Shown: positions 1 through 63,628 of the stretch, piece by piece
How positions within the stretch are numbered: the stretch's first letter is position 1
Layout: the number at the start of each line of letters is the position of its first letter
The notes under the pieces: generated by a model
Told to the model about the DNA's origin: nothing
The model's input: only the letters and a program-made list of their open reading frames with translations
Database searches by the model: none
Made by a program: the position numbers and the translations under genes
Origin: Gemmatimonas sp.
GTDB taxonomy: Bacteria > Gemmatimonadota > Gemmatimonadetes > Gemmatimonadales > Gemmatimonadaceae
Length of the DNA stretch: 64,000 nucleotides
Assembly (NCBI GenBank): GCA_031414535.1
Contig: JANNVQ010000055.1
Location: forward strand, 1-64,000
Direction: 5' to 3'

Positions 1-132
1 CGGCAAGCCGACGAAGGTCGCGCTCACCGCGTGCATGCGCCGCCTACTCATCATCCTCAACGCCATGGTCCGCAAGCAGGAACGGTGGCAGGCCATCACG
101 CCCACCACCGCTTGACTTCCAACACAGCCTCT
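1..132 (+). mobile_element. Right end of an IS110-family insertion sequence (truncated by window start)
   Basis: Transposase C-terminus followed by CTTGACTTCCAACACAGCCT-CT, resembling IS110-group right ends (TTGAC...CAACACAG...CT core). The junction is followed directly by the tail of the family A repeat. Confidence 0.75.
2..115 (+). CDS. IS110-family transposase/recombinase, C-terminal fragment (partial)
   Basis: Manual translation of frame 2: GKPTKVALTACMRRLLIILNAMVRKQERWQAITPTTA*. This matches the typical IS110 C-terminal 'GKxxKVAxxACMRKLLxILNAMxR..W' motif. Not in the ORF track. Confidence 0.85.
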   Translation, partial: GKPTKVALTACMRRLLIILNAMVRKQERWQAITPTTA

Positions 133-141
133 TCGTGGTGA
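131..141. repeat. Truncated right arm of a family A palindromic element (CT-TCGTGGTGA)
   Basis: Identical to the last 11 nt of the copies ending at 29305, 46110 and 51073; lies 6 bp from the sucB stop, a typical position for this family. Confidence 0.65.
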
Positions 142-147
142 CGCCGT

Positions 148-1359
148 TCAGTCGTCAATCAACATGGATGCCGGATCTTCCATCAGTTCCTTGACCCGAA
201 CGAGGAAGAGCACCGCCTGCTGCCCATCAATGATGCGATGGTCGTAGCTCAGCGCGACGTACATCATGGGGCGGATCTCGACCTTTCCGTCTACTGCCAT
301 GGGCCGCTCTTGAATCTTATGGAGCCCAAGAATCGCGACCTGCGGGTAGTTGATGATCGGCGTGGAGAGCAGTGAGCCGAACACACCGCCATTCGTGATG
401 GTGAACGTGCCGCCGGTGAGATCATCCATCGTCAGCTTGCCATCACGCGCTCGCTTGGCCACCGCACCCATCGCGCGGGAGAAGCCCACCATGCCCATGC
501 GGTCGGCGTCCTTCACGTTCGGTACCACCAAGCCCTGCTCGCTGGCCACGGCAATGCCGAGGTTCACGTAGTGTTTATAGATGACGGAGTCGCCGTCGAG
601 CTGCGCGTTCACCACCGGATACGTCTTGAGCGCGAGCGCGGCGGCCTTCGCGAAGAACGGCATGAAGCTGATCTTCACGCCGTGTTCCTTCTCCACGCGC
701 TCCTTCATCCGCTCACGCACAGCAGACACGGCGCTCATATCAATCTCATTGAACGTCGTGAGATGGGCCGTGGCGTGCTGTGCCTGCAAGAGGTTCTCGG
801 CGATGCGCTTGCGGCGCGTCGTCATCTTCTCGCGGGTCTCGCGCAGGCCTTCGGGGCGGGGCGCAGGAGCGGGCGCGGCCTTCACCGGCGCCGTTGTCGG
901 TGCGGGAGCTGGGACAATGGCCTTGGCTGCGACTGGCGCCGCTGGTGCAGCGCTCGCGGCAATGACATCAGGCTTGGAGATGACGCCGCCGCGGCCCGTG
1001 CCTTGCACCGTGCTCAAGTCTACGCCTGTGGCGGTTGCGAGCTTCTGCGCACTTGGCGCGGCGCGCAACTCTGACGGTGCCGCAGCCGCGGGTGCGGCGG
1101 CGGCTGGCGCCGCGGCGGCCACCGCGCCTTCTTCCAAGTGCCCAAGAGACTCGGCCACTTGTACCACATCGCCCTCGGACTTCAGGCGCTTGCGGAGCAC
1201 GCCGGCATTGAGGGCCGGCACCTCGACGGTGATCTTATCCGTCTCGAGCTCCACGAGCGTGTCGCCAATTGCAATGGCGTCGCCTTCGTTCTTGAGCCAG
1301 CGGGAGACGGTTGCCTCGGTGATCGATTCGCCGAGGGGGGGAACCTTGATCTCGATCAT
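148..1359 (-). CDS. sucB: 2-oxoglutarate dehydrogenase E2, dihydrolipoyllysine-residue succinyltransferase
   Basis: Lipoyl domain ([10 protein letters not shown]), Ala/Pro linkers, E3-binding domain ([13 protein letters not shown]), catalytic SYDHRIIDG. Start placed at MIEIKVP (1359). Confidence 0.92.
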
Positions 1360-1385
1360 GCGGGAAATATAGCGAGGGAGTCGTA

Positions 1386-2429
1386 GTGCGAGCACTTACC
1401 ATAGATGCGCACGGCGGGACGGACGTGATTCGGTACCGAGAGGACGTGGCGATGCCCCAACTCTCGGCCCCGGGCCAGGTTCGGGTGCGAGTCAGAGCGG
1501 TCGCCTTGAATCGTCTGGACCTCTGGACCCTCGGCGGCCTGCCGGGCGTGAAAATCACCCCTCCGTGGATCCTCGGCGCCGACGGCATGGGCGTGGTGGA
1601 TGCCATCGAAGGCGTGGCGCCGGGGCTCAAGGTTGGGGACCGCGTGGTGATCAATCCGGGTATCTCCTGCCGTCGCTGTGAGTGGTGCCAGCGTGGCGAG
1701 CATCCGCTGTGCGTGAAGTTCGGTCTCCTCGGTGAGCATCATCCCGGCAGCTTCGCGGAGTATGTGGTGTTGCCCGCGGAGAATGTGCTGCCGATTCCTG
1801 ATTCGGTGCCGGACGAGGTAGCGGCAGCGTTCACGCTTGCCACGTTGACGGCGTGGCGGATGTGCGTGTCGCGCGCGCAGGTGAAGCCAGGCGAGGACGT
1901 GCTCATTTGGGGCATCGGCGGTGGCGTGGCGCAGGCGGCGCTGCGCATTTGCAAGCAGATCGGTGCGCGTGTGTGGGTGACGTCGTCGAGTGCGGAGAAG
2001 TTGGCGCAGGCCGCGGCAATGGGTGCGGACGAATGCATCAACCACGCCACGGAGGATGTGGGCAAGCTCGTGCGGGAGCGCACGAAGAAGCGCGGCGTGG
2101 ATGTGGTCATCGAATCTGTGGGCGAAAAGACTTGGAACGCCTCGCTGCAATCGCTCACTCGTGGCGGGCGCCTGGTGACCTGCGGCGGGACTTCAGGACC
2201 GAAGCTCGAAATCGATGTGCGCCGTCTGTTTTGGTATCAGTGGTCGCTGATGGGCTCCACGATGGGCAACGATGCGGAGTTCGCGGCGGTGACGGCTGAG
2301 CTGTGCGCCGGGCGGCTCTGGCCGCGGGTTGATACGGTGTATCCGTTGGCCGAGGGCCGCGCTGCGTTTGAGCGGATGGCGCGTGGGGAACAGTCGGGCA
2401 AACTCGTGCTGAGAGTCCGCGATGTCTGA
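1386..2429 (+). CDS. Zinc-binding alcohol dehydrogenase / quinone oxidoreductase (MDR family)
   Basis: CxxCxxC structural Zn motif (CRRCEWC...C), GIGGGV Rossmann motif, C-terminal GKLVL. Confidence 0.88.
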
Positions 2430-4574: not shown

Positions 4575-4708
4575 TCACCACGGAGACACAGAGGCGCGGA
4601 GACTGCAACTGCAGGAGCCGCCATTTCAGGGGGGCCCGCGCCGAGAAGTCGATGCGGGCCCCCCAATCTTTCTCAAGTAGTCTCCGTGTCTCCGTGCCTC
4701 CGTGGTGA
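4575..4708. repeat. Family A palindromic element, copy 1 (3-unit arms)
   Basis: TCACCACGGAGACACAGAGGCGCGGAGACT ... AGTCTCCGTGTCTCCGTGCCTCCGTGGTGA with inner hairpin GGGGGGCCCGC/GCGGGCCCCCC. Confidence 0.9.
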
Positions 4709-7336: not shown

Positions 7337-7458
7337 TCACCACGGAGGCACGGAGGGAGCCGCAATGAATTCACGGGCCCGCAACGCCAGAGAAGCAATT
7401 GCTTCTTGGAATTGCGGGCCCGTGAGTTTGCAGAGCACCCTCCGTGCCTCTGTGGTGA
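7337..7458. repeat. Family A palindromic element, copy 2
   Basis: TCACCACGGAGGCACGGAGGG ... CCCTCCGTGCCTCTGTGGTGA; inner CACGGGCCCGCAA..GAAGC-AATT-GCTTC..TTGCGGGCCCGTG. Confidence 0.9.
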
Positions 7459-29184: not shown

Positions 29185-29305
29185 TCACCACGAAGGCACG
29201 AAGGGTGCCGCAATAATCTTTCGGCCCCGCAACCCCAAAAAGCATTCCTTTCTTAGGGTTGCGGGGCCGTCAGTTTGCAGGGAACCCTTCGTGCCTTCGT
29301 GGTGA
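29185..29305. repeat. Family A palindromic element, copy 4
   Basis: TCACCACGAAGGCACGAAGGGT ... ACCCTTCGTGCCTTCGTGGTGA perfect arms; inner CGGCCCCGCAACCC/GGGTTGCGGGGCCG; between convergent genes. Confidence 0.92.
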
Positions 29306-41574: not shown

Positions 41575-41731
41575 GGCTGGACCATTACAGGACTGGGGTT
41601 CGGAACCCGTTCTGGCTCCACAACTTGCGAGAATCTCCCGCTTGCCCCACCCAATCGGGTGGGGTAGCTTCCTCGGGTCGCAATCGTGGGCAGTTCCCGG
41701 TTCCGGTTTTGTTCCCCCAGCCTCAGAAAAA

Positions 41732-45988: not shown

Positions 45989-46110
45989 TCACCACGAAGG
46001 CACGAAGGGAATCGAAACACACTCACGGCCCCGCAACCCTAAAGAAGCTCTAGCTTCTTGGCGTAGCGGGGCCGAAAGTTTTCTGCAAACTCTTCGTGCC
46101 TTCGTGGTGA
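45989..46110. repeat. Family A palindromic element, copy 5
   Basis: TCACCACGAAGGCACGAAG ... CTTCGTGCCTTCGTGGTGA; inner CGGCCCCGC..AAGAAGC-TCTA-GCTTCTT..GCGGGGCCG. Confidence 0.92.
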
Positions 46111-50949: not shown

Positions 50950-51073
50950 TCACCACGAAGGCACGAAGGGCTCCCTGCAGCGTCCATCATCGACGCGCCC
51001 CCTAAAGTTCTTAGACTTTAGGGGGCGCGCTGAGTTACAGATCTGCTGGAAACCCTTCGTGCCTTCGTGGTGA
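50950..51073. repeat. Family A palindromic element, copy 6
   Basis: TCACCACGAAGGCACGAAGGG ... CCCTTCGTGCCTTCGTGGTGA; different inner hairpin GCGCCCCCTAAAGT/ACTTTAGGGGGCGC. Confidence 0.92.
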
Positions 51074-63560: not shown

Positions 63561-63628
63561 TCACCACGGAGACACGGAGGCCCGGAGACTGCTTGAGTAG
63601 TCTCCGGGCCTCCGCGCCTCTGTGGTGA
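63561..63628. repeat. Family A palindromic element, copy 7 (minimal, no inner hairpin)
   Basis: TCACCACGGAGACACGGAGGCCCGGAGACT-GCTTGAGT-AGTCTCCGGGCCTCCGCGCCTCTGTGGTGA; between convergent genes. Confidence 0.92.

Follow-up and report, generated by a model that had tools for sequence, protein, structure and literature searches.

A probable bridge-RNA IS110 element inserted in the arms of a palindromic intergenic repeat of Gemmatimonas

IS621 inserts into a repeated extragenic palindrome, as Choi is said to have described in 2003, and does so at a single fixed position. The insertion of IS110-family elements in extragenic palindromes has long been known (Tobes and Pareja 2006, PMC1525189), and RNA guidance in the family has been established since 2024 (PMC11208160, PMC11208158). 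Two further IS110 elements, ISPpu9 (PMC12288879) and ISPpu10 (10.64898/2026.03.19.712850), target REP sequences in Pseudomonas putida; by their descriptions every copy of these multi-copy elements lies in one conserved intergenic repeat, the sites often forming convergent pairs less than 200 bp apart, and the stem-loop described for ISPpu10 forms locally, as a 5-bp hairpin with the left target inside it. The IS110 group proper is described as having a long left end and a short right end, whereas IS1111 elements carry their RNA in a long right end and have subterminal inverted repeats of 7–17 bp (PMC11208160); the IS1111 group and the seekRNA elements use the same recombinase family and likewise choose their sites by RNA guidance (PMC11187229).

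The element that we describe here lies at one edge of a 64,000-nucleotide stretch of Gemmatimonas sp. DNA, the whole of which we call the window. It resembles IS621 in its two-domain recombinase (E = 1e-36) with five catalytic residues aligned, its CT core, its long left and short right end, a predicted two-loop RNA in which the target loop precedes the donor loop, a right donor with TGTAT as its first bases, a -35-like box in the right end, and a repeated palindrome as target. It differs from IS621 in its protein, which is only ~35–40% identical, in a left target guide that would pair 5–7 nt (9 in IS621) and never pairs the core T, in a right target guide of 7–8 nt (4 in IS621), and in its host repeat, a ~121-bp palindrome with 19-nt arms of tandem octamers rather than the E. 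coli REP. Like ISPpu9 and ISPpu10 as they are described, it is present in several copies, all in one conserved intergenic repeat, at sites that often form convergent pairs less than 200 bp apart; unlike at ISPpu10, the complementary partner lies ~100 bp off, in the opposite arm, and three of the six occupied sites have none. Unlike IS1111, the element has a right end of 17 nt and its putative RNA in the left end. The phenomenon is already known from IS621, ISPpu9 and ISPpu10, and there is no new mechanism here. In a limited sample of the literature on Gemmatimonas IS110 elements and on palindromic intergenic repeats of Gemmatimonadetes, neither this element nor this repeat was described.

The assembly comprises 3.70 Mb with 116 contig ends, and the window is positions 1–64000 of contig C55 (genome G000). 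Its left edge is a contig end because the element is repeated; window 1–132 belongs to an insertion sequence of 1148 bp, as its right end, and half of a repeat arm and the sucB gene follow:

2–115, plus strand: 3' end of the IS110-family recombinase gene, the last 37 codons (GKPTKV...TPTTA) and the stop TGA at 113–115
112–117, plus strand: TTGACT, a -35-like hexamer overlapping the recombinase stop, read directly
116–130, plus strand: non-coding right end CTTCCAACACAGCCT, read directly
124–130, plus strand: left-donor heptamer ACAGCCT, copied by the putative donor-loop guide ACAGCCACU
131–132, plus strand: CT core dinucleotide, found at each of the two junctions in all copies and a single time in empty sites
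131–137, plus strand: CTTCGTG, complementary to the putative right target guide CACGAAG, by sequence comparison
133–141, plus strand: right target TCGTGGTGA, the outer 9 nt of the host repeat arm, by junction alignment
148–1395, minus strand: sucB (2-oxoglutarate dehydrogenase E2), with its stop at 148–150, 6 nt from the repeat arm

A sequence-only reading of this DNA had placed the C-terminus of an IS110-like transposase at 115, then a right end, a CT at 131–132 and a repeat half at 133–141, just past the sucB stop, and each of these coordinates was confirmed to the base. The sucB ORF scored well above the cut-offs of two NCBIfam profiles (TIGR01347, 485.9 bits vs. 378.65; NF004309, 519.7 vs. 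449). The same reading took CT-TCGTGGTGA for the end of an arm of a dispersed palindrome (its family A), and the full arm 19-mer CTTCGTGCCTTCGTGGTGA was indeed found 36 times in the 3.70 Mb.

Window 1–141 was matched at 99–100% identity at five further places (the starts of contigs C53, C32 and C31, the end of C12, and C35:930-1071); there are six right junctions in the assembly, and a blast search with the left end found six left junctions, at the ends of C24, C46 and C8 and the starts of C43, C12 and C57. In all six copies the insertion point is the CT that joins CTTCGTGC to TCGTGGTGA, two of them showing small variants, and the orientation never differs, so that the anticipated placement at one position of the arm holds for the other copies as well. 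The flank directly before the element is CTTCGTGCCT in five of the six and CTCTGTGCCT at C12, in agreement with what had been predicted for the left side; at the junction itself CTTCGTGC-CT is followed by TGTATGTCTCC in five copies and C12 has CTCTGTGC-CT. On the right, ACAGCCT-CT is followed by TCGTGGTGA in four of the six, by TCGTGGTAA at C12 and by CCGTGGTGA at C35.

Genome-wide, 36 exact 19-mers CTTCGTGCCTTCGTGGTGA are uninterrupted, with a single CT and no element, and their comparison with the filled sites therefore fixes the boundaries of the element: filled sites read ...GTGC-CT-[element]-CT-TCGTGG and empty sites ...GTGC-CT-TCGTGG, which gives 1148 bp including one CT. The element begins TGTATG... 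and ends ...ACAGCCT, with no inverted repeats on direct reading. The contigs overlap by 140 or 141 nt, which looks like the word length of the assembler, and it is from these overlaps that the copies are seen to cease being alike at window 141. That the copies are identical up to 141 and not just to 132 might be taken to mean that the conserved flanks, from CTTCGTGCCT to window 141, belong to the element and that no host repeat is involved; the empty sites refute this, and with it an element boundary at 141, while the left flanks run on into the repeat centre and the opposite arm and the overlaps just mark the point at which the copies diverge. We give the idea next to no chance of being right.

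Only one copy has an assembled interior (C35:1-1061), the first 141 nt of which overlap the start of C57. The left ends of five copies are identical or 1 nt apart; the remaining copy, formed by C57:99-228 on the reverse strand together with C35 (C57|C35), differs at element positions 20, 57, 72, 80 and 87, four of the five being in the target loop. The change at position 87 of that copy makes a handshake-like AG, which could pair donor positions 7 and 6. Contig C12 (22,633 bp) starts with the left end of the element and, in an unchanged orientation, finishes with the right end; the two half-sites are degenerate (CTCTGTGC-CT and CT-TCGTGGTAA), and the contig is either a segment between two copies or a circle with one copy. 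In all, the element accounts for at least 11 of the 116 contig ends: four right junctions at contig starts, five left junctions and both ends of C12.

With ~120 bp of repeat homology at many loci, the copies might also have spread by duplication or homologous recombination between repeats from one ancestral insertion. Yet the sequence past the arm is different at each junction, the contexts of the occupied arms differ (full palindromes, a five-unit octamer array, short forms), five left ends are as close to identity as stated above, and relatives in other genomes occupy the corresponding point of the repeat variants that those genomes have; we regard spread of this kind as very unlikely.

The arm with the insertion point belongs to an intergenic palindromic repeat of ~121 bp. 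The sequence CTTCGTGGTGA is present 61 times in 3.70 Mb, and the guide-covered 11-mer GTGCCTTCGTG 57 times against 2.6 expected from base composition; the repeat match at the end of the window is far beyond chance. The 19-mers form inward-facing pairs ~100 bp apart. Allowing up to two mismatches, we counted 93 arms and 32 paired elements, 21 of which measure 120–126 bp, with the layout arm TCACCACGAAGGCACGAAGG, ~20-nt spacer, GC-rich centre hairpin, spacer, arm CCTTCGTGCCTTCGTGGTGA. Two arm subfamilies are equally abundant, CTTCGTGCCTTCGTGGTGA (36 exact, T-type) and CTCCGTGCCTCCGTGGTGA (37 exact, C-type), alongside three hybrids. The predicted right guide of the element fits only the T-type, and the right half is T-type in five of the six copies, which is consistent with arm discrimination, at a binomial estimate of ~0.1 that is not significant alone. 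Repeats of both kinds occur in the window:

29185–29305, no strand: intact unoccupied 121-bp repeat with two exact T-type arms, i.e. two potential landing sites
45989–46110, no strand: intact unoccupied repeat with two exact T-type arms
50950–51073, no strand: intact unoccupied repeat with two exact T-type arms
4690–4708, 7337–7458 and 63561–63579: C-type arms

A partner arm lies near three of the six occupied arms (C8, C24 and C57); of the other three, that on C46 lies in a five-unit CTTCGTGC array, that on C43 is a short form and that on C12 a degenerate site. The octamer CTTCGTGC was seen in tandem arrays at the end of C46 (~41660-41709, with five units at the junction) and on C17 around 18478, and in such arrays the full guide-covered site is recreated at each unit junction. 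Beyond ...GTGGTGA many arms show a loose motif 1–3 nt further out (GCAGTT, GCCGTT; for example at window 142–147), and the repeat may extend some 8–10 nt beyond the 19-mer.

The left neighbour of the window could be identified from a genome of the same genus (G051), in which the next gene starts 11 nt after sucB. The G051 DNA downstream of sucB matches C24:48101-49517 in our genome (81% identity over 1423 nt), where the ORF is that of dihydrolipoyl dehydrogenase, lpd (TIGR01350, 554.7 bits vs. a cut-off of 408.8); sucB and lpd being adjacent in G051, it follows that the end of C24 adjoins the window's contig on the left. From the lpd start, that end runs through 62 nt, TCACCACGAAGGCACGAAG, the centre hairpin and CTTCGTGC-CT to the left end of the element, which is exactly the half-palindrome that had been foreseen for the left flank. 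Here the gap between sucB and lpd is ~190 nt with the repeat (L101:1710-1882 together with window 133–150), plus the 1148-bp element, which is antisense to both genes. The view of the repeat as a safe landing site needs qualifying, since this copy parts sucB from lpd, which are neighbours in the sister species.

The recombinase gene is intact at C35:109-1041 (311 aa) and is the sole IS110-type gene in the genome. The full protein carries both domains expected of it, DEDD (PF01548, DEDD_Tnp_IS110; 7.2e-23, residues 7–142) and Tnp (PF02371, Transposase_20; 1.9e-21, residues 186–269), and passes the profile for 'IS110 family RNA-guided transposase' (NF033542, 214.9 bits vs. a cut-off of 140). By sequence, the best match among solved structures is ISCro4 (PDB 9t56, E = 7e-40, residues 3–295), followed by IS621 (8wt6, E = 1e-36). 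Residues D7, E50, D92, D95 and S230 align to positions 13, 62, 104, 107 and 243 of the IS621 chain, which, less a constant offset of 2, are D11, E60, D102, D105 and S241, the residues named as essential in IS621 (PMC11208158).

The non-coding ends measure 195 nt before the ATG and 17 nt after the stop, which is the layout of the IS110 group. The minimum-energy fold of the left end has two modules, each made of an outer stem, a large internal loop and a small inner hairpin; the IS621 RNA is described as having two such internal-loop modules (PMC11208158). Folding energy was not significant (z = -0.69; 48 of 200 shuffles folded as well), so the claim of structure rests on covariation. Ten left ends were aligned (alignment A1: the variant copy C57|C35, L014–L018, L020, L022, L024 and L025), leaving out a truncated one (L019), two from the same element as L020 (L021 and L023) and loci fetched later. 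RNAalifold retained both modules on this alignment, with compensatory changes in 14 of 22 pairs. When the inner hairpin of the target loop was added, for 26 pairs in total, 90.4% of cells over the ten left ends were paired vs. 78.0% in shuffles, and 15 of the 26 pairs were changed on both sides vs. a shuffled mean of 8.4, neither value being reached in any of 500 shuffles; sliding the partners by 1–3 columns left 32–45% paired. Covariation, and not folding energy, thus supports the view that the left end encodes a structured bridge RNA with two internal-loop modules. Searches of Rfam 15, which may lack a bridge-RNA model, gave no match for two element loci (E-value threshold) or for the whole window (gathering threshold).

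In the circular form, TTGACT would stand 17 nt upstream of TATGTC (element positions 3–8). The box TTGA(C/T) at the stop codon, in which the TGA stop is embedded, is conserved in the relatives inspected (L014–L025, L094 and L096). IS621 is described as having a junction promoter across its right and left ends (PMC11208160, PMC11208158), and by analogy TTGACT/TATGTC is a candidate for one. By eye, there is also a TTGATG in the repeat spacer, at 19 nt, a -35-like box for the integrated state.

The geometry of the guides was taken from IS621, in which left guides copy the top strand of the left flank plus core and right guides are the reverse complement of the core plus right flank (PMC11208160, PMC11208158). 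In the first loop, the putative right target guide CACGAAG on the 3' strand is the reverse complement of CT+TCGTG at 7 of 7 positions, whereas the putative left target guide on the 5' strand, GUGCC, equals GTGC plus the core C (five contiguous matches, six of nine in total) and leaves the core T unpaired. The sequence-only reading had called for guides against both halves of the site, and it was borne out for CT+TCGTG; for TTCGTGCCT the match is confined to GUGCC. In IS621 the left target guide is given as 9 nt, with pairing of both core bases strongly preferred (PMC11208160, PMC11208158). The canonical IS621 register for the left guide, 9 nt plus a 1-nt linker before the inner hairpin, was tried and rejected: it gives CAAGGUGCC, in which the last two bases are not CU. 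A register ending on the core C fits four of five clade members, and L014 fits one base further left.

In the second loop, the putative donor guides match the element's own joined ends, ACAGCCT-CT-TGTAT. By eye, ACAGCCACU matches ACAGCCT-CT at eight of nine positions, with the mismatch at position 7, where one is reported to be tolerated in IS621 (PMC11208160, PMC11208158), and AU..GCAAG matches CT-TGTAT of the left end discontiguously, as in IS621. Where it was compared with the IS110 group, the element appears on its sequence to have the features of the group, except that its left target guide is shorter than that of IS621.

The variant copy C57|C35 has guides that fit its own hybrid site CTTCGTGC-CT-CCGTGG poorly, with three contiguous pairs on the right and three on the left. 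We considered another site that these altered guides might specify and rejected it: the corresponding 11-mers match four and three times, at chance level, in unique sequence that is unoccupied. As for the regular guides, perfect 12-nt matches to both (GGTGCCTTCGTG) occur outside the repeat at four places (C29:128749, C38:119686, C54:116249 and C54:19915), all unique, apparently coding and unoccupied. A sequence match alone may be insufficient, or in-gene insertions may have been lost to selection.

A homologue was found at E ≤ 1e-20 in 13 of 61 genomes sampled from the family, our genome included, as well as G007, which is unpublished and enters this count alone. We compared the RNA of 12 elements with their sites by the longest stretch of exact reverse complementarity to the cognate core together with its right flank. 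It is at least 7 nt in nine of the 12 and 6 nt in two, L018 and L014, the flank of the latter ending 4 nt past the core at a contig end; in the variant copy of our own genome it is 4 nt. Off-diagonal matches of 7 nt fall between elements with the same site (L014, L015 and L094) and between the L016 RNA and the CT-CCGTG of the variant copy; one further such match, L016 against L024, lies in a hairpin loop and is due to chance.

Within the Gemmatimonadaceae clade the putative right guide stands at one constant position of the RNA, as CACGAAG here, CACAGAG in L014, L015 and G051, and CACGGAG in L016, and the matching sites are CT-TCGTG, CT-CTGTG and CT-CCGTG, respectively. The left guide shifts with the site too (GUGCC, GUGCC, CGCGUC in L016 with the site CGCGT-C, and GUGUC in G051 with one G-U pair), and this covariation argues that it is a guide, though a shorter one of 5–7 nt. 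In the five clade members the base after it is A or C, never U, while the distant relatives L017 and L020 keep the canonical ...CU ending. The repeats of the host genomes behave accordingly: the pattern CTYYGTGCCTYYGTGG occurs 94 times in our genome and 99 times in G051 (its reversed control, 0 in both), where nearly all of the arms among those listed are CTCTGTG, as read by the guide of the G051 element, and the arms of our genome are CTTCGTG or CTCCGTG. On these sequences, then, the predicted guides vary in step with the local repeat variant in related genomes.

Such variation bears on whether the recombinase might instead recognise the palindromic DNA, as a hairpin or cruciform, with the RNA match secondary or coincidental. 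The target does lie within a long palindrome, three of the six occupied arms have a partner arm and the GC-rich centre hairpin nearby, no copy occupies any of the four 12-nt sites in unique sequence that match the guides perfectly, and the stem-loop of the ISPpu10 target is described as adding specificity (10.64898/2026.03.19.712850). However, the partner arm is absent at the other three occupied sites (the C46 octamer array, C43 and C12), the guides of relatives change with the site while the protein is still 77–86% identical, and RNA guidance has been established by experiment in this family (PMC11208160, PMC11208158). We hold recognition of DNA structure to be improbable.

To the reading of the locus as an IS110 element whose bridge RNA directs it to the repeat arm we give a probability of roughly 0.88; that the RNA is expressed, that circles form, and that the RNA and not protein or DNA structure selects the site are what we infer. 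Under the bridge-RNA reading the element would excise as a circle, placing TTGACT (window 112–117) 17 nt upstream of the -10-like TATGTC, and this junction would drive a bridge RNA from the left end. The first, target-binding internal loop would carry the two target guides and the second, donor-binding loop would read the joined ends. The 311-aa DEDD/Tnp serine recombinase, in complex with the RNA, would then recombine the circle at its CT core with GTGC-CT-TCGTG, a sequence whose place in the repeat arm would offer dozens of equivalent landing sites.

An element that moved recently could by now be inactive, for example through a defect of the RNA or the recombinase in all copies, the pattern being historical. 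With its short left guide and its core T left unpaired, the element does not follow the rules of IS621, one copy has a degraded target loop, and the short Logan contigs of four sequencing runs showed no circle junction (nor any contig that spans the repeat at an empty sucB–lpd site). Against this stand the intact ORF with all five catalytic residues, the five near-identical copies, and the conservation of the short-left-guide design in five related elements from five genomes, which argues for function; we think inactivity unlikely. In run X1 the depth of the element-end contig is 74 vs. 12–18 in the flanking contigs, and, such depths not being copy numbers, this agrees only roughly with several copies. 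Compared with window 1–141, runs X1, X2, X4 and X5 also contain diverged relatives of the element end in the same metagenomes; one such contig has 12 differences in 131 nt at a depth of 28.6 in X1, and contigs of 1078 and 1168 nt have five differences and continue through position 141, with the same arm type in another strain.

Taken as a bridge-RNA element, the locus is a well-resolved natural example from a little-studied phylum, with six filled sites, dozens of empty ones and a small series of relatives, in whose guides the differences fall precisely at the positions that vary between the host repeats. What is modestly new is the combination of short left and long right guides without core-T pairing in one clade, and the stepwise tracking of repeat variants. 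We offer more tentatively, as a possibility with somewhat less than even odds, that the Gemmatimonadaceae clade as a whole has this shifted geometry (left guide of 5–7 nt, core T unpaired, right guide of 7–8 nt) and that its guides have been naturally reprogrammed along with species-specific repeat variants, CTTCGTG here, CTCTGTG in the sister species and CTCCGTG in another. If so, element and repeat would be a co-evolving pair, and in this genome one guide position would separate two arm subfamilies of equal abundance (36 vs. 37 exact). A natural reprogramming series of this kind would help to show what lengths of guide and what rules of core pairing are tolerated by bridge recombinases, the case here being a left guide that is short, a right guide that is long and a core T that stays unpaired.
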